Shown here one piece after another: positions 689 through 56,997 of a stretch of DNA of 64,000 nt (positions within the stretch are counted from its first letter, which is position 1; every line of letters starts with the position of its first letter). The position numbers and the translations under genes were made by a program. The DNA lies in the NCBI GenBank assembly GCA_963740355.1, contig CAVUDW010000001.1:119016-183015 (forward strand), read 5' to 3'. This DNA comes from an uncultured Gemmatimonadaceae bacterium (GTDB lineage Bacteria; Gemmatimonadota; Gemmatimonadetes; Gemmatimonadales; Gemmatimonadaceae). A model generated the notes under the pieces. That model saw only the letters and a program-made list of their open reading frames with translations. It ran no database searches and was not told the DNA's origin.

Positions 689-2716
689 ATGGCCTTGGAC
701 ACACAAATGCTGCATGCCGCACTGCAGCTGCCTCATGGGTACTGCTACCTCTGGGATCCGGGCCTGATCTGGCTGCACGCGCTCTCGGATGGCTTGATCG
801 GTGCCGCGTACTTCGCGATCCCGATCGTACTGGCCCGCTTCCTTCGCCAGCGGAAGGACATTCCCTTCAACGGCATCGTCTGGTGCTTCGCCGTCTTCAT
901 CCTTGCCTGCGGCGCCACGCACTGGATCAGCGTCGTCAATATCTGGGTGCCGAGCTGGTGGACATCGGGAGGCTTGAAGGCGCTGACCGCCGCCGCATCG
1001 CTTCCGACGGCCTTCCTGCTGCATCGCATGACACCGATGCTGGTTGCGTTGCCAAGCCCGACGCAACTGCACGCGGCCAACGCCACACTCGCGGCAGAAA
1101 TCGCAGAGCGCAAGAAAATCGAGCAGATGCTCCGCGAGTCGCAGGCCGAACTGGAAAAGCGCGTCGAAGAGCGTACCACCGAACTCGCGCGCGCAAATGC
1201 GTCCCTGCGCCTGCTCGAGTCAGCCGTGACACAGTCCACCGATGCGTTCACCATCACGACCGGCGATCTCGATGCACCGGGACCAAAGATCGTGTTTGCC
1301 AACCCTGCGATGACACGGATCACGGGCTACCCGCTTGACGACCTGCTGGGCAAGACGCCGCGAATCCTGCAGGGCCCAAAGACGGACCATGAGATGTTGT
1401 CCGAAATGCGGCGTACCCTGACCGAGACGGGCGCATTCGCAGGCGAGACCCTGAACTATCGCGCGGATGGCGGTGAGTTCGTGATGAGCTGGAAGGTGAC
1501 CCCGATCCGCGACGAGGATGGCATGATCGGGCACTATCTCGCCGTCCAACGGGATGTGACGGAACAGCGCGATCTCGAACTCCAGTTTCGACAGGCACAG
1601 AAGATGGAAGCCGTCGGCCAGCTGGCGGGCGGAATTGCGCACGACTTCAACAACCTGCTCACCGCAATCCAAGGCAACTGCGCGCTGCTGATGGAGGATA
1701 TACCAGCCCCGGATCCTCGTCGTGTGTTCGTCGAGGAGATCGACGATGCGGGCGCGCGTGCAGCTCGGTTGACACGGCAACTTCTCGCGTTCAGTCGGCG
1801 GCAGATTCGCCAGCCGACCGCGATCAGCCTCGACGTCGTCGTGACCGACGCGCTCCGCCTGTTGGGTCGCCTGCTCGGCGAACGCATCGATGTTCGATTC
1901 GCACCCACCAAGGATCTAGGCCTGGTCTGGGCGGACCCCGATCAGTTGGAACAGGTGGTGCTGAACCTGGCGGTCAACGCGCGCGACGCGATGCCACAGG
2001 GCGGCACCCTCACGATCGAGACCGCGAATGTGGAGCTCGACGGTGACTACGCCGGCATGCACATGTCCGTGATCCCCGGTTCGTACGTGATGCTCTGCGT
2101 GACGGACACCGGTTCCGGCATGCCACCGGAGACGATCACTCGAATTTTCGAACCCTTCTTCACCACGAAGCCCGTGGGTCAGGGTACCGGTCTCGGATTG
2201 TCCACGCTCTATGGCATCGTGAAACAGAGCCGCGGCAATGTCTGGGTGTATTCGGAGCCGGGTCGGGGCACCACCTTCAAGGTCTACCTCCCGCGAGTGT
2301 CGGATCCCGCGGTCAGGGTGACGCGGCCCACTCCTGTGTCATCGACGCTCGTGCTGGGTTCGGGCGTTGTGCTGCTCGTCGAGGATGACCCCGCGGTCCG
2401 CAGCCTTGCCGCACGCATGCTGCGACGCGCAGGATACGATGTGATCGATGCGGCGACGCCGGCGATCGCACTCGAGATTGCACGGGACGAGTCGGTCCAC
2501 ATCGACATCCTGCTGACGGATGTCGTGATGGCAGGTCTGACGGGGCCCGAACTCGCCGCTGCGGTCCGTGAACGACGACCCTCTATCCGCGTCGCTTTCA
2601 TGTCTGGGTACACCGACACGGCGCTCGACGCACACCAACTAGCGGACGCGCACGCTGTGCTCATCTCGAAGCCGTTCACGGGCAGTTCGCTCACCGCGCA
2701 GATCGCCAAGGTGTGA
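689..2716 (+). CDS. Hybrid sensor histidine kinase/response regulator: ethylene-receptor-like TM domain, PAS, HisKA, HATPase, REC
   Basis: SDGLIGAAYFAIP...FILACGATH (ETR1-like); PAS GKTPRILQG; H-box GIAHDFNN; N-box NLAVNARDAM; GTGLGL; REC LLTDVVM...KPF. Confidence 0.93.
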   Translation: MALDTQMLHAALQLPHGYCYLWDPGLIWLHALSDGLIGAAYFAIPIVLARFLRQRKDIPFNGIVWCFAVFILACGATHWISVVNIWVPSWWTSGGLKALTAAASLPTAFLLHRMTPMLVALPSPTQLHAANATLAAEIAERKKIEQMLRESQAELEKRVEERTTELARANASLRLLESAVTQSTDAFTITTGDLDAPGPKIVFANPAMTRITGYPLDDLLGKTPRILQGPKTDHEMLSEMRRTLTETGAFAGETLNYRADGGEFVMSWKVTPIRDEDGMIGHYLAVQRDVTEQRDLELQFRQAQKMEAVGQLAGGIAHDFNNLLTAIQGNCALLMEDIPAPDPRRVFVEEIDDAGARAARLTRQLLAFSRRQIRQPTAISLDVVVTDALRLLGRLLGERIDVRFAPTKDLGLVWADPDQLEQVVLNLAVNARDAMPQGGTLTIETANVELDGDYAGMHMSVIPGSYVMLCVTDTGSGMPPETITRIFEPFFTTKPVGQGTGLGLSTLYGIVKQSRGNVWVYSEPGRGTTFKVYLPRVSDPAVRVTRPTPVSSTLVLGSGVVLLVEDDPAVRSLAARMLRRAGYDVIDAATPAIALEIARDESVHIDILLTDVVMAGLTGPELAAAVRERRPSIRVAFMSGYTDTALDAHQLADAHAVLISKPFTGSSLTAQIAKV

Positions 2717-38639: not shown

Positions 38640-38723
38640 GCCGAAGTGGTGGAACTGGTAGACGCGCTGCGTTCAGGGCGCAGTGGGTGCAAGCCCGTGG
38701 GGGTTCGAGTCCCCCCTTCGGCA
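38640..38723 (+). tRNA. tRNA-Leu(CAG); CCA not encoded
   Basis: GCCGAAG/CTTCGGC acceptor stem, D-loop GGTA, anticodon arm CTGCG-TTCAGGG-CGCAG, long variable arm, GGTTCGAGTCC T-arm. Confidence 0.97.
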
Positions 38724-48133: not shown

Positions 48134-49495
48134 TCAGACAGTTGGTTCAGGCATGGATTCCAGTGACCGCTTGAGATCTGCCATGAAGCGATCGGCATCG
48201 GCGCCATCGACGACCTTGTGGTCGAACGACATCGAGAAATAGGCACAGGTCCGGATCGCAATCGTATCCTCGCCGTCGGCGCCCGTGATCACCTTGGGGC
48301 GCTTCTCGATCGCACCAAGTCCAAGGATCGCCGTCGTCCCAACCGGGATGATCGGGGTGCCCATCAACGAGCCAAACACGCCTGGATTGGTGATCGTGAA
48401 GGTCGCCTGTGTGACCTCGTCAGGCTTCAACCCCTTCGAGCGGGCACGCGCCGCGAGATCATTGATGGCCTTCGTCAACCCACCAAGCGAGAGGTCGTCG
48501 GCGCGCTTGACGACCGGCACGATCAAGCCCGTCGGGTCGAGCGCAACAGCGATGCCGATGTTGTACTGCTTGCGGTAGATCATGTCGGTGCCATTGACGG
48601 CAGCGTTCATCATCGGGTGCCGCTTGAGCTGCGCAATCACCGCCTGCACGATGAACGGCAGGAAGGTGAGCTTCTGTCCGTTCTGGGCCTCGAAATCCTT
48701 GCGCATACCGGCGCGGATGCGGGCCACGCGCGTAAGGTCGATCTCGAAGAAGCTGGTCACGTGCGCCGCAACGCGACGCGCCTGCGACATGTGATCCGAG
48801 GTCAGTCGACGGATCTTCGACATCGGCTCGACGACATCGCCTGGCCAGACCTGTGCCGTTTGCGTCTCATGCGAGACTGAGGTGGCAGCGACAGCCGGGA
48901 TGCTCACCGACGTCGGGAGCGCCGCGATCGGGGCCGGCGGTGCCGGTTCCGGGGCAGCGGTGGCGGGCCCGGTTTCGAGATGCGCGAGGATGTCGCGCTT
49001 CGTGACCCGCCCTGCGATGCCCGAGCCGTTGATGCCGGCGATCTCGACACCGTGCTCGGCTGCAATCTTTCGGACCAGCGGCGAGGAGCGTGTCCGGAGG
49101 CGATCCTCGAGGCTGTTGGCGGCGTAGGCCGGCGTTGGAGCCGCGACTGGCGCGACAGGCACCGCGGCAGCGACCGGGGCGGCTGGCGCGGCCGTCACGG
49201 CAGCGGCCGGGGCCGCGGCAGGGGCGCTGGGCGCGACGACGACTGCGGCACCGACCTCGGTCTCGAGGCGTGCCACGATCGCCTGCACCGGCACCGTCAT
49301 CCCTTCGGTGACGATGATCTCCACCAGGATGCCGGCGGCGGGCGACGGAATTTCAGCATCGACCTTGTCGGTCGAAATCTCGAAGATGGCTTCATCGCGC
49401 TTCACCGCGTCGCCCGGCTTCTTCAGCCAGCGTGACAAGGTGCCTTCAGCGATGGATTCGCCCATCTGCGGCATTACGATATCAATACGAGCCAC
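48134..49495 (-). CDS. 2-oxoacid dehydrogenase E2 dihydrolipoamide acyltransferase
   Basis: Lipoyl motif EISTDKVDAE, E3-binding GSGIAGRVTKRDI, catalytic DHKVVDG. Confidence 0.95.
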   Translation of the reverse strand: MARIDIVMPQMGESIAEGTLSRWLKKPGDAVKRDEAIFEISTDKVDAEIPSPAAGILVEIIVTEGMTVPVQAIVARLETEVGAAVVVAPSAPAAAPAAAVTAAPAAPVAAAVPVAPVAAPTPAYAANSLEDRLRTRSSPLVRKIAAEHGVEIAGINGSGIAGRVTKRDILAHLETGPATAAPEPAPPAPIAALPTSVSIPAVAATSVSHETQTAQVWPGDVVEPMSKIRRLTSDHMSQARRVAAHVTSFFEIDLTRVARIRAGMRKDFEAQNGQKLTFLPFIVQAVIAQLKRHPMMNAAVNGTDMIYRKQYNIGIAVALDPTGLIVPVVKRADDLSLGGLTKAINDLAARARSKGLKPDEVTQATFTITNPGVFGSLMGTPIIPVGTTAILGLGAIEKRPKVITGADGEDTIAIRTCAYFSMSFDHKVVDGADADRFMADLKRSLESMPEPTV

Positions 49496-49509
49496 CAGCT
49501 CACCCTCAA

Positions 49510-49848
49510 TCAGACATTGCGGGAACGATCATGCGCAGCGTCACCACGTTTCAGGCGCCACAGCGAGACCGTCGGAAGGATAATCATGCCCACCACGCCG
49601 CCACGGGCGGCCCAGGTGAGCCAGTTGCATGTAGGTAAGCCCTCGCACTGCGGTTCGTTGAGGGCCTGCGACACGATCTTGGCGATCAGGACGGAAATCA
49701 TGCCGCCGCCGAAAAAGCCGATGAACGTGGTAAAACATCCAACGCCGATATTTCGATAGCGTCGTCCAGAAATATCGTCGTCGGGCTGCGCCTGCTGGGG
49801 CTTGGACTGCGGATCCGTCACGTTCGTGTCTGGTTCAGTATCGGGCAA
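49510..49848 (-). CDS. Hypothetical 2-TM membrane protein
   Basis: Two hydrophobic helices with a CEGLPTC loop; overlaps the E1-beta stop. Confidence 0.7.
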   Translation of the reverse strand: MPDTEPDTNVTDPQSKPQQAQPDDDISGRRYRNIGVGCFTTFIGFFGGGMISVLIAKIVSQALNEPQCEGLPTCNWLTWAARGGVVGMIILPTVSLWRLKRGDAAHDRSRNV

Positions 49849-50812
49849 GGTGCCGGGCCACGGTGACGATGTCGCTCACCTGGGGCAGCACAAAGTCTTC
49901 GAGCGGGGGAGAATAGGGCAGCGGCACGTCGTGTGCCGTCACGCGGAGGACCGGCGCGTCGAGCCACTCGAAACAGGTCTCGTTGATGCGCGCCGTGATC
50001 TCACCGGCGATACCGCCGGTCCGGGTGTCCTCGTGCACCACCATCACCCGGTTGGTCTTCTTGACCGTCGCCACGATCGCCTCGTCGTCCATCGGCAGCA
50101 GCGTGCGCAGGTCGATCACCTCGACCGAAATGCCGTCCTCGCGCTCGAGCTGTTCTGCCGCCTCGAGCGCCTTCCACACCGTGGCGGCGTAGGTGATGAT
50201 CGAGACGTCCTTCCCTTCCCGGGCCACACGGGCCTTGCCGATCGGCACGACATGATCGCCCGCTGGCATCACGTCCTTGACGCGGCGGTACAGATACTTG
50301 TGCTCGAAGAAGAGCACGCAGTCGTCGTCGCGGATGGCGGCCTTCATCAGGCCCTTGGCGTCCGACGCAGTGGCTGGGTACACGATCTTGAGGCCCGGCG
50401 TGTGGAGAAACGCTGCCTCGGGATTCTGTGAGTGAAACGGACCACCACGCACATACCCACCGCTCGGACCACGCACCACCATGGGGCATGGGAGAAAGGC
50501 GCGGTATCGGGCGGTCGCGACATAGTTCGTGAGCATGTCGTAGCCACACGAGATGAAGTCGATGAACTGCAGCTCCACCACCGGGCGCAGGCCCATGTGC
50601 GACGCGCCCGCCGCCGCACCGATGATCGCGGCCTCGGAGATCGGCGTGTCGATCACCCGCTGTTCGCCGAATTTCGCCAGCAATCCCTCGGTGACCTTGA
50701 ACGCGCCACCGAAGGCACCAATGTCCTCGCCAAGGCAGAAGACGTTCGCGTCGCGCTCCATCTCCTCGAAGATCGCCTCGCGGATGGCTTCGAGATAGGT
50801 GATCTCAGCCAT
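49835..50812 (-). CDS. 2-oxoacid dehydrogenase E1 beta subunit
   Basis: GEDIG, DTPISE, ELQFIDF, HSQNPE. Confidence 0.95.
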   Translation of the reverse strand: MAEITYLEAIREAIFEEMERDANVFCLGEDIGAFGGAFKVTEGLLAKFGEQRVIDTPISEAAIIGAAAGASHMGLRPVVELQFIDFISCGYDMLTNYVATARYRAFLPCPMVVRGPSGGYVRGGPFHSQNPEAAFLHTPGLKIVYPATASDAKGLMKAAIRDDDCVLFFEHKYLYRRVKDVMPAGDHVVPIGKARVAREGKDVSIITYAATVWKALEAAEQLEREDGISVEVIDLRTLLPMDDEAIVATVKKTNRVMVVHEDTRTGGIAGEITARINETCFEWLDAPVLRVTAHDVPLPYSPPLEDFVLPQVSDIVTVARHLARY

Positions 50813-51953
50813 CGTGCGTCCCCCAGCTGGCCGGCCGTTCGTTCTTCTCGACGGCGGCCCGCACCCCTTCGCGATACCAGTGCGGCGGGAGCGACGCGGG
50901 TTCGCCATAAATACCGATGAGCGCGTCGAGCGGCTCCGGCATGGGGCTCCTCTCGGCTTCATCGGTCGCGGCATCGATCTCCGCCGCCACCGATGCGTCG
51001 ATCGCTGCGAATTCGCCTTCGGTCACACCATCATGTTCCGTCAGCCAGGCCACGAAGCGATCGATGGGGTCGTTGTTGGCCGCCCACCACTCGATCTCGC
51101 CAGTCGGCACGTAGGACTGGTTGTCGTGCTCTGCATGGCCCTTGCGGCGATACGTGATCAGCTCGACGAGCGTCGGTCCGCCGCCGGCACGCGCGCGATC
51201 CACCGCCGCCTTCGTGACATCGTAGACGGCCAGCACGTCGTTGCCATCGGCTTGCACGCCAGCAATGCCGTACCCCAGTGCCTTATCCATGAAGGAGTTG
51301 GCCGCGGTCTGCTTGCCGGTCGGCGTCGAATAGGCGTAGCCGTTGTTTTCGACGATCACGACCAGCGGCACCTTCTGCACGGCGGCGAAGTTGACGCCCT
51401 CGTGGAAGGCGCCCGTCGAGGTGGCACCGTCGCCGATGTACACCAGCACCACGCGATCCTCGCCACGCATCTTGAACGAGAGCGCGATGCCGGCCATCAC
51501 CGGGATCATGTCTCCAAGGTGCGAGATCTGTCCGACGAACCCGCGGACCAGGTCACCGAAGTGAATGTTGAGTTCCCGGCCACGCGTCGGTGAATCCCCT
51601 TTCGCCATGTACTGGCGCAGGATCTCGAGCGGCGTTGCGCCCTTCACCAGCATCGACCCCATGTTGCGGATCAGCGGCGACATGATGTCGCGACGCTCGA
51701 GCGCGAAGGCGCTGCCGACGGCGTCGGCTTCCTGCCCCAGTGACCGGAACAACCCGCCGACCACCTTCGTCTGTCGGTAGAGCGCGACGAGGCGTTCCTC
51801 GAGCGTGCGCGTCATGCGCATGTGCCGATACAACTCGAGGCGCTGTGCGCGGGTGAGCAGGTCGGCATGCGGGCGCGCCGACCGCGCGGCACCGCTGTCC
51901 GCGTCTGGTGCGAGCATCGCGTCGAAGTCGAGCGGATGCGCGGGAAACTCCAC
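50805..51953 (-). CDS. 2-oxoacid dehydrogenase E1 alpha subunit
   Basis: TPP motif GDGATSTG...ENNGYA; TYRRKGHAEHD. Confidence 0.95.
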   Translation of the reverse strand: MEFPAHPLDFDAMLAPDADSGAARSARPHADLLTRAQRLELYRHMRMTRTLEERLVALYRQTKVVGGLFRSLGQEADAVGSAFALERRDIMSPLIRNMGSMLVKGATPLEILRQYMAKGDSPTRGRELNIHFGDLVRGFVGQISHLGDMIPVMAGIALSFKMRGEDRVVLVYIGDGATSTGAFHEGVNFAAVQKVPLVVIVENNGYAYSTPTGKQTAANSFMDKALGYGIAGVQADGNDVLAVYDVTKAAVDRARAGGGPTLVELITYRRKGHAEHDNQSYVPTGEIEWWAANNDPIDRFVAWLTEHDGVTEGEFAAIDASVAAEIDAATDEAERSPMPEPLDALIGIYGEPASLPPHWYREGVRAAVEKNERPASWGTHDG

Positions 51954-51954
51954 G

Positions 51955-52248
51955 TCAGTACCCTACCGTGGGGACGTGATGCGGATCGGCAGCGCGGTGC
52001 ACACGATTGAAGAACTTCTTCACATTCTTGTCGAGCCGACTCTCGCCGATCTGGTCGGTGTAGGCCTCGACGAGCGTGTAATGGCCACCGTCGCTGCGAA
52101 CCTTGAGTTGCAAGGTGCCAAGGTCGCCCGTGAAGGTGCGCGTGCGCATGGTGTCGGCCGTGCCGCGCAGGCCAAGCGCCTTGAAGTGATCGTCGGCAAG
52201 CGCGATCACATCGGCAGGCAGAATCGAGGTGCGGTGAAAGAGTCGCAT
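51955..52248 (-). CDS. Small hypothetical protein
   Basis: ATG at 52248; tight operon spacing. Confidence 0.7.
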   Translation of the reverse strand: MRLFHRTSILPADVIALADDHFKALGLRGTADTMRTRTFTGDLGTLQLKVRSDGGHYTLVEAYTDQIGESRLDKNVKKFFNRVHRAADPHHVPTVGY

Positions 52249-52252
52249 GGGA

Positions 52253-52756
52253 TCAACGTGCGTTGCGGACTGACTGCAACCAGTCCATGGTCTCGAGCTT
52301 CTTGGTGGTGTCACGCCGGAACTGCAGGCCGATAGCCCACTCGCCGGCGGTCACGAAGTTGAGCTTCGCATAGTACGTGCCCGGTTCCGGCCCACGTTCG
52401 AGGCCGTCGAACACCTTCACGCTGTCGTGGCTCATGGCGTAGATGCGGCCTTCGCCATTCTCGACCGGCGCGCCGGACTCCTTGTCCGACACGACGACCT
52501 TCACGATCACGTCCTCGCGCGCAAACGGCGGGCGCGGTGTGAGCCGGATGCGGAACGATAGGTCGTCCGTCCACATCCGGGTGTCGATCGCGGCCTGCGG
52601 ATCCTTCGCCGTACACGCGGCCAGGAGCATGACCGCGACCACAGCAGGCACCGCGCGGCGCGCCACCTGCGCCACACGGGCCAGCATGCCGAGCGGCGCA
52701 CCGGCGCCGTTCCGGCGAGGCGCGACCAGCGGTTGCGTCGCGCTGCCGGACGTCAT
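52253..52756 (-). CDS. FixH/YtkA-like Ig-fold lipoprotein
   Basis: Lipobox LLAAC; EPGTYYAKLNFVTAGEW. Confidence 0.65.
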   Translation of the reverse strand: MTSGSATQPLVAPRRNGAGAPLGMLARVAQVARRAVPAVVAVMLLAACTAKDPQAAIDTRMWTDDLSFRIRLTPRPPFAREDVIVKVVVSDKESGAPVENGEGRIYAMSHDSVKVFDGLERGPEPGTYYAKLNFVTAGEWAIGLQFRRDTTKKLETMDWLQSVRNAR

Positions 52757-54084
52757 CAGGTGTAGTACTCCAGGCCGAGATGCGTGATCTGGTCCTCGCC
52801 CATCAGGAAGCGCAGCGTGTTCTTGAGCTTCGTCTGCTGGATGAACAGGTCGTGCTCCGGCTGCAAGCCCGGCGCCGCCATGGGGCTCTTGTAGTAGAAC
52901 GACAGCCATTCCTGGATCCCCTTCATGCCAGCGCGATGGGCGAAGTCGCTGAACAGCGCCAGGTCGAGCACGATCGGCGCCGCCAGGATCGAGTCGCGAC
53001 AGAGGAAGTTCACCTTGATCTGCATCGGGTAGCCCATCCACCCGACGATGTCGATGTTGTCCCAGCCTTCCTTGTTGTCGCCGCGCGGCGGATAGTAGTT
53101 GATCCGCACCACGTGCGAGAAATCCTTGTACAGCTCGGGTAGACTTCCGGCTGCAGGATGTTGTGCAGCACCGACAGCTTCGACTCTTCCTTGGTCTTGA
53201 ACGACGCCGGATCGTCGAGCACTTCGCCGTCGCGGTTGCCGAGGATGTTCGTCGAGTACCAGCCGTCGAGGCCGAGCATGCGCGCCTTGAGGCCGGGCGC
53301 GATGACGGTCTTCATCCAGGTCTGGCCCGGTCTTGAAGTCCTTGCCGCTGACCGGGACGCCACGCTCGTTGGCGAGCTGCAACATGCACGGCAGGTCGAC
53401 CGTCAGGTTCGGTGCGCCATTGCAGAACGGCACGTTCTCCATCAACGCCGCCCACGCGTAGAGCATCGACGGGGCGATCGCAGGATCGTTCTCCTCCATC
53501 GCCTTCTCGAACGTTTCCACGGTGTCGTGCTGCGGGCCTGGCTTGATGAACGCCTCGGTGCTCGCGCACCAGACGATGACCAGTCGATCGCAGCCGTTGG
53601 CCGCCTTGAATTCGCGCATGTCGGCGCGCAGCTGCTCGGCGATGTCGCGATACGTCGGCCCAGTCTTGACGTTGTCGACGCCGAGCAAGCGGGTCACGAA
53701 CCGCGACTCGAAGGCGGCCTTCATCGGCTTGATGCCGGTGAGGAAGTCCTTCAGCGGCTCGAGGTGTTCAGCGGATAGCACGCCGGCCTTCTTGGCGGCG
53801 GTGTACGCGTCATCGGAAATCGGATCCCAGGCCCCGAACACGATGTCACCGAGCCCTGCCAGCGGCACGAAATCCTTGATCAGCGGCGACCGGTGCTCGG
53901 TGCGCTTGCCGAGGCGAATCGTGGCCATCTGCGTCAGCGATCCGATCGGGCTGGTGTGGCCGCGACGGATGCTTTCGACGCCCGCCATGAACGTGGTGGC
54001 AACCGCACCGAGACCGGGGGTCAGGATGCCAAGTTTGCCAGTGGCAGGAGCGATGGACGTCGGACGAGTGAGCGAACCGGGCAC
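52756..54084 (-). CDS. ino1: myo-Inositol-1-phosphate synthase (compensating frameshifts about 53330-53140)
   Basis: GLGAVATT, WCASTE, GKDFKTGQT, STNILGNRDG (alternate frame), RDSILAAPIVLDL. Confidence 0.93.
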   Translation of the reverse strand: MPGSLTRPTSIAPATGKLGILTPGLGAVATTFMAGVESIRRGHTSPIGSLTQMATIRLGKRTEHRSPLIKDFVPLAGLGDIVFGAWDPISDDAYTAAKKAGVLSAEHLEPLKDFLTGIKPMKAAFESRFVTRLLGVDNVKTGPTYRDIAEQLRADMREFKAANGCDRLVIVWCASTEAFIKPGPQHDTVETFEKAMEENDPAIAPSMLYAWAALMENVPFCNGAPNLTVDLPCMLQLANERGVPVSGKDFKTGPDLDEDRHRARPQGAHARPRRLVLDEHPRQPRRRSARRSGVVQDQGRVEAVGAAQHPAAGSLPELYKDFSHVVRINYYPPRGDNKEGWDNIDIVGWMGYPMQIKVNFLCRDSILAAPIVLDLALFSDFAHRAGMKGIQEWLSFYYKSPMAAPGLQPEHDLFIQQTKLKNTLRFLMGEDQITHLGLEYYT

Positions 54085-54117
54085 GTGGTGAAATCTCCAG
54101 GGGGAAAAGCGACGCCT

Positions 54118-54846
54118 TCAGGGGGCGACGGGAGCCGGCACATCATCGGACAGCGACGTGGGTGTCGCTGGTGATGCTGCACTGGGAGCGCGCGACGCGA
54201 GCGACGGCTCACGGGCCAGATCGGCCTCGCGCGTGACGTTGTAGACGAAGAGGATGCGCTGGATGGCCGTGATCCAGGCCGTGACCGCCAGCAGTGTGAC
54301 GATGCCCGCCAGCACCCACCCATTGAGCGCGAGTCCGAAGAACGCCTGGGGTGCCGAGAGCAGGGTGACGCGTTCCGGCCGCTGCATGATGCCGACCTTG
54401 GCATCGAGCCCCAGCGATTCGGCGCGGGCGCGCGTGTACGACGTGAGGAAGGTGCCAATCAGGCCCGCGATCGTGATCGAGAGCATGATCGGGCTGTGAT
54501 GCACGGGGTTGATGCCGTAGAACACGGCGAGCCCGCCCAGCACAAAACCATCCGCGACCCGATCCAGTGTCGAGTCGTAGAAGGCGCCGAACGTCGTGCT
54601 TCGCCCGGTGCGGCGCGCCACGGTCCCATCGAGTACGTCGAAGAGTGCCGTCAGGCCGAGGAACCACCCCGCCGTCGAGATGTGGCCACTGGCGAAGATC
54701 ACGCCGGAGATCATGGTGCAGATCGTCCCGACGGTGGTAATCAGGTTCGGGCTGACGCGATGGCGCACAAGAAAATCCGCCACCGGCGCGATCACGCGCA
54801 GGTAACCAGCCTTGATCGCATCCCAGACTGCAACGAGCATGGCCAT
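54118..54846 (-). CDS. CDP-alcohol phosphatidyltransferase (probable phosphatidylinositol-phosphate synthase)
   Basis: DVLDGTVARRTG...GAFYDSTLDRVAD; SYTRARAESLG...GIMQRPER as in actinobacterial PgsA; adjacent to ino1. Confidence 0.9.
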   Translation of the reverse strand: MAMLVAVWDAIKAGYLRVIAPVADFLVRHRVSPNLITTVGTICTMISGVIFASGHISTAGWFLGLTALFDVLDGTVARRTGRSTTFGAFYDSTLDRVADGFVLGGLAVFYGINPVHHSPIMLSITIAGLIGTFLTSYTRARAESLGLDAKVGIMQRPERVTLLSAPQAFFGLALNGWVLAGIVTLLAVTAWITAIQRILFVYNVTREADLAREPSLASRAPSAASPATPTSLSDDVPAPVAP

Positions 54847-54880
54847 GAGGTGGCGGAGAAACAGACGAAGACAACGGCTA

Positions 54881-54927
54881 CGAAAACGAACGCCCCCCGG
54901 CATCTCCGCCGTGAGGGCATGCGGGGC
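54881..54927 (-). terminator. Terminator-like hairpin in the pgsA/ino1 leader
   Basis: Minus strand GCCCCGCAT...ATGCCGGGGGGC followed by GTTCGTTTTCG. Confidence 0.45.
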
Positions 54928-54967
54928 CTCAGTCCGAGAACTGAAACGCAGATAGAGAAGCTTAGAG

Positions 54968-55078
54968 GCGGGACTTGAATGCAGCAACGGCGGCGTCCGC
55001 TACTTCGTGCCGTAGAGCCCGCCGTTCCGCTCGGTTCTCGCGGTAGCCGTGGCTACCCTTCTGCCATTCCAGGCCCGC
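54968..55078 (-). ncRNA. Candidate structured RNA (riboswitch-like leader or sRNA), family not recognised
   Basis: Closing stem GCGGGCCTGGAATGGCAG/CTGCATTCAAGTCCCGC; hairpin GGTAGC-CACG-GCTACC; stem AACGGCGG/CCGCCGTT enclosing CTAC-GGCACGAA-GTAG. Confidence 0.6.
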
Positions 55079-55152
55079 GCCGCAAGGATTGATCGAGCGG
55101 GAGTACCCGAGCCTGATCACGTCGCACTTTTTCACTTTCGTTCAGTCCACAC

Positions 55153-56997
55153 ATGCGTTTTCTCTTGATCACGGGGTCTGCGGTCGCGCTCGCCAGTAGC
55201 GTCTGGACGGCGGCTGGATCGCGCCCGACCGCCGGCGGCGAGCTGCATGTCGGTCCGGTCGGGGCCGGTACCAGCGTCCTTCGCCGCGCGCCGGGCTCGG
55301 AATCCCGTGATCCGCGTGTGCCGCTCTCCGCGGCCGGACAGCGCTGGGTGGACAGCACCCTGCAAACGCTCTCCCAGCGCCAACGGGCCGCGCAGTTGAT
55401 CCACGTCTGGTTGCTCGGTGACTACGAGAGCACGACCGACAGCGCCTTTGCGGTCACCGCACGATGGGTGCGCGAGGATGGGATCGGCGGCATCCTGATG
55501 TCCGTCGGATCGCCGATCGAGGTCGCGGCCAAGCTGAACGCGCTGCAGGCCATGTCTCGCGTCCCGTTGCTGGTGGGCTGCGACGTGGAGCCGTCGCTGG
55601 GGCGGCTCGAAGGTGGTCTGTTCATTCCCTCGATGCTCAAGGGCGGCGGTGCGACGCTGCTGCCGACGAACATGGCGATCGGCGCCACCGCAGACACCGC
55701 TCTCGCCTATCAGGCTGGCCTCGTGACCGGTCGAGAGGCCCGCGCCATCGGCATCCACCTCGCGTACGCGCCAGTGGCCGACGTGAACAACAATGCCGCC
55801 AACCCGGTCATCAACGTCCGGTCGTTTGGCGAGGACCCCGCGCTGGTGGCTTCGATGGTCGCGGCGTTCACCCGCGGAGTGCAGGATGGTGGCGCGCTGG
55901 CGACGGTGAAGCACTTCCCCGGCCACGGCGATACGGAAACCGACTCACACAACGCCCTGCCCGTGGTGCACCTGACGCACGCCCGGCTCGACAGCGTCGA
56001 ACTGCGCCCCTTCCGCGCGGCGATCAATGTCGGAGTGGCGGCCGTGATGTCCGCGCACATCAGCAATCCGACCTGGATGGGGGATGCCCTGCCGGCGACG
56101 CTCCAGCGGCGCGTGCTCCGCGACGAGCTCCGTGATTCCCTGCACTTTCGCGGCCTCACGATCACCGACGCGCTCACCATGCAGGGCGTGGCGCGGATGT
56201 TTTCGCAGGACGAGATCGCGATTCGCTCGATCGAGGCCGGCGCGGAGGTGCTGCTGAAGCCGGCGGATGTGACGCCGGTGCTCAATGCGCTGGCCGCACG
56301 TGCGGCCAGGGACACGGCGTTCGCGGCGCTGATCGACGCCGCCGCCCGCAAGAATCTCGAGATGAAGGTGCGGGTCGGCCTCGATCAGTCATCGCAGATG
56401 TCGCTTGATTCGCTTCGCCTGCACGTCGGCACCGCGAGCAATCGCGCCGTCGCGACGGCGATTGCCAGCCGGGCCGTGACCGTGCTCCGCGACGGTGCGG
56501 GCCAGATTCCGCTGGCCCGCGGCCGCAATCTGCGGGTCGTGGTGTACACACCGGAGACGGAGTTCGGCGGAGGCGCGGCCTTCCTCGATGAATTCAAGAA
56601 GCGCGCGGATGCCACGGTCTACCGTGTCGGGCCGCAGACTTCCGCGATCGAGCTGAACGCGATCAGCAAACGTGCCACCCGAGGCCGACTGGTCGTCCTC
56701 ACCGTGGTGCGACGCGTGGAGGGCCGTGGGCGGGTCGCCATTGCGGAGCCGTTCGCGGCGTGGGTGCGCCGGATTGCTCCGAAGCTGAAACCTGTCGTGA
56801 TTGCGGCGGGCAACCCGTACGTGATTGGCCAGTTTCCCAGGATTGAGGCGTACATGACGACATTCAGCGTGGGCGAGGCATCCGAACGCGCCGCGGCGCG
56901 GGCACTGCTCGGCGCGGCAGTCAGCGGGCATTCACCGGTCAGCCTGCCCGGCGTTTTCTCGCGCACCGATGGCGTGACGGGAGGCAATGGACGATGA
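55153..56997 (+). CDS. nagZ: GH3 beta-N-acetylglucosaminidase (two-domain NagZ type), secreted
   Basis: KHFPGHGDTETDSH NagZ motif; ITDALTM; signal peptide. Confidence 0.88.
   Translation: MRFLLITGSAVALASSVWTAAGSRPTAGGELHVGPVGAGTSVLRRAPGSESRDPRVPLSAAGQRWVDSTLQTLSQRQRAAQLIHVWLLGDYESTTDSAFAVTARWVREDGIGGILMSVGSPIEVAAKLNALQAMSRVPLLVGCDVEPSLGRLEGGLFIPSMLKGGGATLLPTNMAIGATADTALAYQAGLVTGREARAIGIHLAYAPVADVNNNAANPVINVRSFGEDPALVASMVAAFTRGVQDGGALATVKHFPGHGDTETDSHNALPVVHLTHARLDSVELRPFRAAINVGVAAVMSAHISNPTWMGDALPATLQRRVLRDELRDSLHFRGLTITDALTMQGVARMFSQDEIAIRSIEAGAEVLLKPADVTPVLNALAARAARDTAFAALIDAAARKNLEMKVRVGLDQSSQMSLDSLRLHVGTASNRAVATAIASRAVTVLRDGAGQIPLARGRNLRVVVYTPETEFGGGAAFLDEFKKRADATVYRVGPQTSAIELNAISKRATRGRLVVLTVVRRVEGRGRVAIAEPFAAWVRRIAPKLKPVVIAAGNPYVIGQFPRIEAYMTTFSVGEASERAAARALLGAAVSGHSPVSLPGVFSRTDGVTGGNGR

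Follow-up and report, generated by a model that had tools for sequence, protein, structure and literature searches.

The window analysed here is a stretch of 64,000 nt from an uncultured Gemmatimonadaceae bacterium (contig CAVUDW010000001.1 of assembly GCA_963740355.1). Its interval 55078-54881 on the minus strand sits within an intergenic region of about 300 nt between divergent genes, upstream of an operon consisting of a PIP synthase gene and ino1, the gene of myo-inositol-1-phosphate synthase. With roughly even confidence, the interval is interpreted as a promoter and the PIP synthase-ino1 leader, which would carry an attenuator hairpin of the intrinsic-terminator type. According to this proposal, a sigma-70-type promoter at 54959-54987 would start transcription of the operon, most likely near 54950-54953 and thus some 6-8 nt past the -10 hexamer. 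About 35 nt into the leader, the RNA would fold into a very stable GC hairpin of 11 bp, capped by a GAGA loop, with a U-rich stretch behind it. This structure of the intrinsic-terminator type, 35-41 nt before a start codon without Shine-Dalgarno sequence, would act as a leaky or regulated premature terminator and set the transcription that reaches the inositol-lipid genes. The near-invariant hairpin and its 5' flank would be recognised by a trans-acting factor and would not form a self-contained aptamer. Premature termination at the hairpin and its regulation are what we infer from the sequence comparisons described in the following.

The first gene of the operon encodes a CDP-alcohol phosphatidyltransferase of the PIP synthase type (54209-54846, minus strand; Pfam PF01066, E 6.2e-17). 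Its start codon is either ATG 54840 or ATG 54846, and conservation among sister species begins at these ATGs. The second gene, ino1, is located at 52756-54084 on the same strand (Pfam PF07994, E 3.3e-95). A PIP synthase homologue was found in 51 of 61 sampled genomes of the family, corresponding to 50 of 60 genera (a tally that includes the unpublished genome G199).

Promoter-like sequence is conserved in front of these genes. In the alignment of the window's genus, the -35 hexamer TTGCTG (54982-54987, minus strand) lies in a segment with a column identity of 0.99 (54981-54992). The -10 hexamer TAAGCT (54959-54964, minus strand), 17 nt past the -35 hexamer, has a column identity of 0.90, and the spacer between them one of 0.71; the alignment displays the conserved blocks GTTGCTGCA and CTAAGCTT with variable sequence between them. 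Beyond the genus, TTGNNN-N17-TANNNT occurred in 24 of 29 regions upstream of PIP synthase (28 other genera and the window), 64-160 nt before the start, as opposed to 0.32% of random 230-nt windows of this genome. The spacer measured 17 nt in every one of those loci although 16-18 nt were permitted. The same motif was present within 150 nt upstream of 22 of the 50 tRNA genes vs. 0.56% of random 150-nt windows. The tRNA promoters have -10 forms such as TAGCTT, TAGTTT, TAGGTT, TACCTT and similar ones, and the -10 hexamer can end as little as 8-12 nt ahead of the mature tRNA. A clean example of this promoter type belongs to the tRNA-Leu gene at 38640-38723 (plus strand), where TTGACA-N17-TATCCT ends 9 nt before the mature 5' end. 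From these comparisons, 54959-54987 appears to be a sigma-70-type promoter, conserved family-wide and built like the tRNA promoters of the genome. The transcription start zone would accordingly be expected at approx. 54949-54954 on the minus strand, 5-10 nt after the -10 hexamer.

The hairpin GCCCUC-A-CGGCG-GAGA-UGCCG-GGGGGC (54892-54918, minus strand) is conserved in sequence, pairing and position, and it is specific to this locus. In the RNAalifold consensus, it comprises 11 bp, one bulged A and a GNRA-type loop, and it forms the core of the near-invariant block (G)AAGCCCCGCAUGCCCUCACGGCGGAGAUGCCGGGGGGCUUUCUU downstream of the promoter. Its column identity is 0.98 (54893-54919); the coding sequence reaches 0.80 over its first 90 nt, and the leader 0.54 past the U-rich tail. 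Folded alone, it reached -24 kcal/mol with a z-score of -2.44, and three out of 200 shuffles were as good. It was the only structure tested here that folded above chance, which neither the junction fold nor the intergenic fold described below did. In the 17-sequence alignment, all 187 of 187 cells pair. One-side changes, which affect three pairs, were U-G to C-G in two sequences, C-G to U-G in two and G-C to G-U in one, and a both-side change (C-G to G-U) was seen once, at one pair. Besides the window's genome, 18 out of 19 other genomes of the genus carry the hairpin. One of these, G009, had been missed by BLAST and keeps the hairpin by shifting the register by one base, so that a new U serves as partner of the A that is bulged elsewhere.

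The hairpin is single-copy in the genome. Out of 187 genomic matches to the promoter motif, only three have a hairpin of -20 kcal/mol or below plus a T-rich tail within the next 90 nt, and the inositol leader ranks second among them. In the same genome but outside the window, C2:2349054-2349140 (plus strand; locus L194, 355-430) has TTGATT-N17-TACTTT, followed after 1 nt by a hairpin of -27.6 kcal/mol with a U-rich tail. It precedes a gene with a strong GAGGGAGGG Shine-Dalgarno sequence, gave no Rfam match and shows a promoter-adjacent hairpin layout like that of the inositol leaders in other genera described below. A terminator scan called a shorter stem overlapping the inositol-leader hairpin. 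A covariance model of the genus hairpin (R1), run over 151 genomes of the phylum, returned the window's genome and two matches at E ~9e-4, but nothing convincing: one of the two marks an ordinary terminator behind another, unrelated gene, and the second lies inside coding sequence.

Position, stability and T-rich tail together fit a leader attenuator. That the sequence hardly varies speaks for a partner with sequence specificity, be it a protein or a second RNA, and against a role of the structure alone. The neighbour on the other side of the intergenic region, a glycoside hydrolase family 3 (GH3) gene (55153-56997, plus strand; Pfam PF00933, E 5.9e-69), is divergent, and therefore the hairpin is not the terminator of an upstream gene. 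Among the 19 loci of other genera that were used for the model R2 introduced below, the upstream neighbour had Pfam support in 11. Eight of these neighbours are divergent (beta-lactamase family or GH3), and the other three are co-directional NamZ genes ending 121-449 nt upstream.

The sequence around the hairpin is conserved to different degrees. Directly 5' of it lies a conserved single-stranded flank, (GAGG)CCCCGCAU (54919-54931, minus strand), with a column identity of 0.82; no variation was seen at C34, C35, G36 and C37 among 17-18 species. The 5' end of the leader is occupied by a 9-bp hairpin, UUUCAGUUC-UCGG-GACUGAGG (54926-54947, minus strand), which appears in both the minimum free energy (MFE) structure and the centroid of the leader and has a column identity of 0.69. 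This second hairpin is species-specific, and weaker or different pairings take its place in other species. The U-rich tail GUUCGUUUUCG (54881-54891, minus strand) has a column identity of 0.75 and reads CUUUCUU in most species.

A promoter, a conserved unpaired stretch, a stable hairpin and a U-rich tail are also the typical layout of a small RNA (sRNA) gene, and flank and hairpin are more conserved than the coding sequence. The promoter, a transcript of about 60-70 nt and the terminator could thus form an independent sRNA gene with the seed GAAGCCCCGCAUG, in which case PIP synthase would be transcribed by read-through or from another promoter. This is considered quite unlikely, as the start codon follows the tail after only 35-45 nt, no second TTGNNN-N17-TANNNT was seen there by eye, and the element always stands at one locus, directly before PIP synthase or ino1.

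In many other genera, the promoter at the PIP synthase locus is followed at once by a hairpin of the form GGGCCGGAGC-loop-GCUCCGGCCC, referred to here as the family type. In the seed alignment of the corresponding model, R2, 89.4% of the cells pair compared with 55.9% or less in slid controls. These values have to be read with the fact that the 19 seeds were chosen by eye among the 28 other-genus loci and that the alignment was fitted to the model, which is to be counted with the objections to an attenuator gathered below. Six of the ten pairs show changes on both sides, a result reached by one out of 500 shuffles. The stem starts 3 nt past the -10 hexamer in 15 of the 19 seeds, 2 nt past it in one and 4 nt past it in one, while two were not parsed. 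The 8 nt after the stem contain between 0 and 7 T, with a mean of 4.2 over the 19 seeds. At the remaining nine of the 28 loci, R2 found no match, and some of them have other hairpins further downstream as judged by eye.

Over the 61 family genomes, R2 gave 31 matches at E ≤ 1e-4 (a tally with the unpublished genomes G199, G200 and G181), 18 of which are seeds that match by construction. The 13 non-seed matches were distributed as follows: five lie directly upstream of PIP synthase, four directly upstream of ino1, one at a contig end and three elsewhere. The four ino1-adjacent matches are from G022 and G128 (public) and from G181 and G200 (unpublished), and no PIP synthase gene precedes ino1 there. 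The ino1 genes of G022 and G181 are 68% and 70% identical, respectively, to that of the window. Downstream synteny with the genes for 2-oxoacid dehydrogenase E1 alpha and beta shows that this is the same locus as in the window. In the phylum sample, R2 matched in nine out of 31 genomes of the family vs. one out of 119 genomes of other families. The conserved core of the window's interval was also matched exactly in seven public records of metagenome-assembled genomes, five of them labelled Gemmatimonadaceae, one Gemmatimonadota and one Gemmatimonadales. As far as these searches can tell, the element appears to be lineage-specific.

The inverted repeat might instead serve as a DNA operator at which a dimeric transcription factor would control the inositol operon. 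Its half-sites are conserved in sequence and not just in complementarity (GGCCGGAG...CUCCGGCC across genera, near-invariant in the genus), and the family-type repeat overlaps the likely transcription start, a classic repressor position at which the outer pairs may even precede +1. Yet the distance between the half-sites varies with an unpaired centre of 3-16 nt in the family type, and G-U pairs, which would be mismatches in DNA, are frequent (GU in 5, 2, 2 and 3 sequences and UG in 3, at different pairs of R2). The position relative to the promoter differs as well, being +35 in the genus and approx. +1 in the family type, and the T-rich tail is found on one side only. An operator is hence regarded as very unlikely.

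A stronger competitor is a 5' untranslated region (5'-UTR) element that does not terminate transcription at all. Such a hairpin would stabilise the mRNA against 5'-end-dependent decay, or it would control translation by pairing of GGCGGA in the hairpin with UCCGCC before the ATG. The RNA 5' end is the usual place of protective 5' stem-loops, and the family-type hairpin, starting 3 nt after the -10 hexamer, would lie at or before this end. The T tract is poor in nine of the 19 family-type copies. Moreover, a pyrimidine block, UUCUCCGCCA (54851-54860, minus strand; consensus UUUCCGCCAC), occupies the expected Shine-Dalgarno position with a column identity of 0.82. The GGCGGA/UCCGCC complementarity holds in 94.1% of the cells and all single changes give G-U, although no double change was found. 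Against such an element, the hairpin of the window's genus lies about 35 nt from the inferred 5' end and behind another hairpin, so that it is not 5'-terminal. T is enriched after the stem in most family-type copies, with the mean given above standing against about 1.3 of 8 expected by chance in GC-rich DNA (a rough estimate of our own and not a computed value). In addition, G003, one species of the same genus, keeps the pre-ATG block without the hairpin, and the alternative pairing described below has no double changes. A 5'-UTR element of this kind is therefore judged unlikely, but it is the alternative to which most weight is given. The organism has strong Shine-Dalgarno sites elsewhere, while the PIP synthase start lacks one; C-rich blocks before the start were also noticed by eye in other genera.

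Several results weigh against the attenuator and its promoter. Within the genus, covariation in the hairpin is thin, with 37 out of 500 shuffles reaching the observed score; this is attributed to the element being almost invariant. A metagenome scan with the promoter anchor GTTGCTGCA-N14-CTAAGCTT found 36 loci, only one of which contained the leader, and added no covariation power. The U tract is interrupted, both in the window (GUUCGUUUUCG) and in most of the genus (CUUUCUU). Nine of the 19 family-type hairpins have three or fewer T in the next 8 nt, and some family-type copies may not terminate at all. G003 (locus L070, ~2130-2250, minus strand) retains the promoter TTGCTG-N17-TAAGCT as well as the pre-ATG block, but unrelated hairpins replace the hairpin module; this leader looks like a natural 'swap' that could serve for testing function. 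No supported antiterminator was found either: in an alternative set of pairings (flank CCCCGCAU with the 3' arm, GGCGGA loop with the pre-ATG block), 95.2% of the cells can pair, but there are zero double changes, and every shuffle does as well. As regards the promoter, scanning the region with the strict consensus TTGACA/TATAAT yielded no site, and a genome-wide count of TTGC-N19-TANNTT was not enriched (15 vs. 51 in the reversed control), although this was a crude count. The comparative and tRNA evidence is considered stronger than the strict scan and the crude count.

Further candidates for leader control were set aside. A 6-bp antiterminator pairing, UCGUGA/UCACGG, which had been noticed by eye, is broken in several species. 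A leader peptide MPSRR... starting from an ATG inside the conserved block was dismissed by eye, since two species have an in-frame stop after five codons and the lengths differ. Possible likenesses to the RfaH ops element (GGCGGTAG...), to CsrA GGA-loop sites and to the ZTP motif CGUGAC were not retained, and no Rfam JUMPstart or pfl match was obtained.

The outer GGG/CCC pairs of the family-type stem start 3 nt after the -10 hexamer and yet covary. If transcription began at the usual distance of 6-8 nt, these pairs would remain untranscribed. Thus, either the family-type start is unusually close to the -10 hexamer or the choice of start site modulates the strength of the stem. The latter option is the basis of a speculative reading based on nucleoside triphosphate (NTP) sensing. 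In its full form, which appears improbable to us, the hairpin core would represent an undescribed class of attenuator that is confined to one bacterial family and dedicated to inositol-lipid synthesis. In most genera, the start nucleotide (G or C, and with it the availability of GTP or CTP) or an RNA-binding factor might, speculatively, decide whether a full terminator is made. In the window's genus, again as speculation, this arrangement might be replaced by a sequence-invariant module of about 50 nt, consisting of the flank, the GNRA hairpin and the pre-ATG block, that is read by a specific protein or small ligand.

The upstream part of the interval had been interpreted differently by an earlier sequence-only reading, in which the minus strand was folded into a closed three-way junction of roughly 110 nt (55078-54968) and regarded as an orphan riboswitch aptamer or standalone structured RNA. 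All strings quoted for this fold are present on the minus strand of 55078-54881. P1 would pair 55077-55060 with 54984-54968, and P2 is the hairpin GGUAGC-CACG-GCUACC at ~55057-55042. P3, AACGGCGG/CCGCCGUU, has its closing strand at 54993-54986 and is capped by the apical stem CUAC-GGCACGAA-GUAG. The helices can be drawn, and the single-sequence MFE structure of 54960-55085 (126 nt) computed with ViennaRNA has three branches that resemble them. Still, this fold was no better than chance: its energy of -52.4 kcal/mol compares with a shuffle mean of -50.6 kcal/mol (sd 3.9; z -0.46), and 63 of the 200 shuffles folded as well or better. The folding z-score of the whole 308-nt intergenic region was -0.09.

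When the MFE structure with P1, P2 and P3 was projected onto the 18-sequence genus alignment, the helices were not kept. Only 46.1% of the cells pair, compared with 38.4-45.4% in slid controls and 44.6% in shuffles, and 39 out of 500 shuffles reached the observed value. This test is limited by the 5' half of the junction being essentially unalignable in sister species, although the lack of alignment is a result in itself. A 201-nt query gave BLAST matches in 17 of the 19 other genus genomes, all restricted to the 3' half (~55009 and lower). The 5' half (P1 5' strand, P2, junction, P3 5' strand and apical stem; 55003-55078, minus strand) has a mean column identity of 0.48, which equals the background. 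In the 3' half, the drawn P3 3' strand (54993-54986) and P1 3' strand (54984-54968) coincide with the -35 hexamer and the spacer of the promoter, and UUCAAGUCC falls in this spacer, too. The conservation that is seen in these strands is that of promoter DNA, which lies ahead of the likely start of transcription. The segment 55003-55078, further upstream, is intergenic DNA without conservation and does not belong to the element.

Within this otherwise unconserved DNA, one block, AAG(G/C)(G/C)TAGC(G/C) at 55048-55059 (minus strand), has a column identity of 0.74 and is kept in all genus genomes, G009 and G003 included. On the plus strand, it reads TAnnnT (TACCCT here, TAGGCT in most species) and lies about 94 nt before the GH3 start; no TTG was seen by eye 17 nt upstream that would make it a plus-strand -10 hexamer.

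Known RNA families did not account for the interval either. Rfam 15 at gathering thresholds reported only the tRNA at 38640-38723 in the whole window. At E-values up to 10, the region 54700-55300 gave four matches to eukaryotic or viral families with E 1.2-5.6 and 10-20 bits, compared with cut-offs of 40-70 bits, and ARAGORN detected neither tRNA nor tmRNA genes in 54000-56000. With a 5' half at background identity, no covariation in the helices and 3' strands that are promoter DNA, the proposed orphan riboswitch or multi-stem sRNA was abandoned, and a three-way junction is considered extremely unlikely. The GC hairpin with U-rich tail (54918-54881), by comparison, was described correctly as lying 35-41 nt before ATG 54846 or 54840 without any GGAGG-like Shine-Dalgarno sequence. 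From the suggestion that the structure is an attenuator for inositol-lipid synthesis, the hairpin between promoter and PIP synthase start was retained; treated there as an accessory, it is the part that is conserved, whereas no aptamer-like structure, antiterminator or ligand was found to go with it.

A 16-mer in the interval, CUACGGCACGAAGUAG, had been linked in the earlier reading to similar elements in other phyla. In 51 out of 80 fetched loci, it turned out to be the in-frame 3' end of an open reading frame (ORF) of the uracil phosphoribosyltransferase type. The ends of these ORFs read G[LI]G[DE]xx[DE]...YGTK*, which we take to be the typical C-terminus of uracil phosphoribosyltransferase. 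CAAGTCC was not found downstream of the 16-mer at any of the 80 loci. The sequence CTACGGCACGAAGTAG is present in at least 119 genome records from many phyla; according to our own estimate, about 280 chance matches are expected for any 16-mer in 596 Gb when both strands are counted. The likeness of the 16-mer is a coincidence with coding sequence and points to no RNA family. A remnant of a upp pseudogene in the window was also considered and rejected, as the frame leading to LYGTK* is open for only 38 codons and is Upp-like only in its last five residues. The intact upp gene of the genome is located elsewhere and ends in different nucleotides.

Downstream of ino1 (48134-52314, minus strand), a 119-aa ORF without Pfam match is followed by 2-oxoacid dehydrogenase genes, namely, E1 alpha (50805-51953), E1 beta (49835-50974) and E2 (48134-49495), all on the minus strand. 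The same gene order after ino1 was observed in G022 and G128, and ino1 and the 2-oxoacid dehydrogenase genes may belong to a larger lipid-related gene cluster. Within the ino1 ORF, about 66 codons at 53136-53333 (minus strand) are read in the wrong frame. The conserved peptide is encoded there in another frame and is 91% identical to the G022 homologue over 66 residues, while the flanks are conserved in frame. A displaced frame between in-frame flanks implies a pair of indels that compensate each other, and either assembly errors or a genuine double frameshift could lie behind them.

To our knowledge, the regulation of bacterial inositol-lipid production has been little studied. The inositol-lipid literature that was found concerns, in the parts accessible to us, Bacteroidetes and mycobacteria. 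In the portions consulted, the literature joining inositol-1-phosphate synthase with riboswitches described no natural ino1 riboswitch. The parts covered by a literature search on Gemmatimonas and transcription start contained no mapped start sites for Gemmatimonadaceae. Against this background, the analysis offers a working promoter consensus, TTGnnn-17-TAnnTT, for Gemmatimonadaceae from comparative data alone as well as the first candidate for a cis-regulatory leader element of a bacterial PIP synthase-ino1 operon. A false lead is also cleared away, as the hand-drawn multi-stem RNA consists of promoter DNA and unconserved spacer. The hairpin, in turn, provides a simple and testable handle on inositol-lipid regulation.

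Leader hairpins and attenuators as such are of an ordinary kind, and what is unusual here is the invariance of the sequence and the fixed spacing between promoter and hairpin in related genera. Leader attenuators that rely on an intrinsic terminator without a leader peptide are known from E. coli ampC and B. subtilis pyrG. The candidate element resembles them in that its promoter and the first biosynthetic gene are separated by a stable GC hairpin and a U-rich tail, so that downstream expression would depend on read-through only. Unlike in these systems, the window's genus yielded neither an antiterminator nor conservation of the initially transcribed sequence, and with its divergent neighbour there is no upstream operon that uses the hairpin as terminator. 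Unlike ordinary terminators, the inositol-leader hairpin is near-invariant (0.98). With riboswitches, it shares the conserved cis element in the 5' leader of a metabolic operon and a putative platform of the terminator type. It differs from them by the lack of a conserved multi-helix aptamer and of any Rfam match at E up to 10, and the ~35 variable nt ahead of the hairpin are too short and too poorly conserved for a known aptamer class.

Stabilising stem-loops at the 5' end of an mRNA are exemplified by the 5' UTR of ompA. The hairpins of other genera are similar to it since they start 3 nt past the -10 hexamer and would sit at the extreme 5' end of the RNA, while the window's hairpin is internal to the leader and a T-rich tail is found in most copies. 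NTP-sensitive start selection and reiterative transcription control E. coli pyrC, pyrD and upp and B. subtilis pyrG. A likeness to these systems exists for the family type only, in which the 5' arm of the hairpin is a GGGCC run that begins 3 nt past the -10 hexamer; the start nucleotide would then decide how much of the stem is transcribed. CDP-diacylglycerol, the substrate of PIP synthase, derives from CTP. The parallel, a matter of conjecture, does not extend to the window's genus, in which the initially transcribed sequence is variable. The promoter itself can be compared with the TTG...TAnnTT(T) housekeeping promoters and with the -7 motif TAnnTTTG of Bacteroidota. It has the form TTGnnn-17-TAnnnT with a preference for T at position 5 of the -10 hexamer, which is common to the tRNA promoters of the genome. 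Unlike promoters of the Bacteroidota type, it possesses a clear TTG -35 element at a distance of 17 nt, as in classical sigma-70 promoters.

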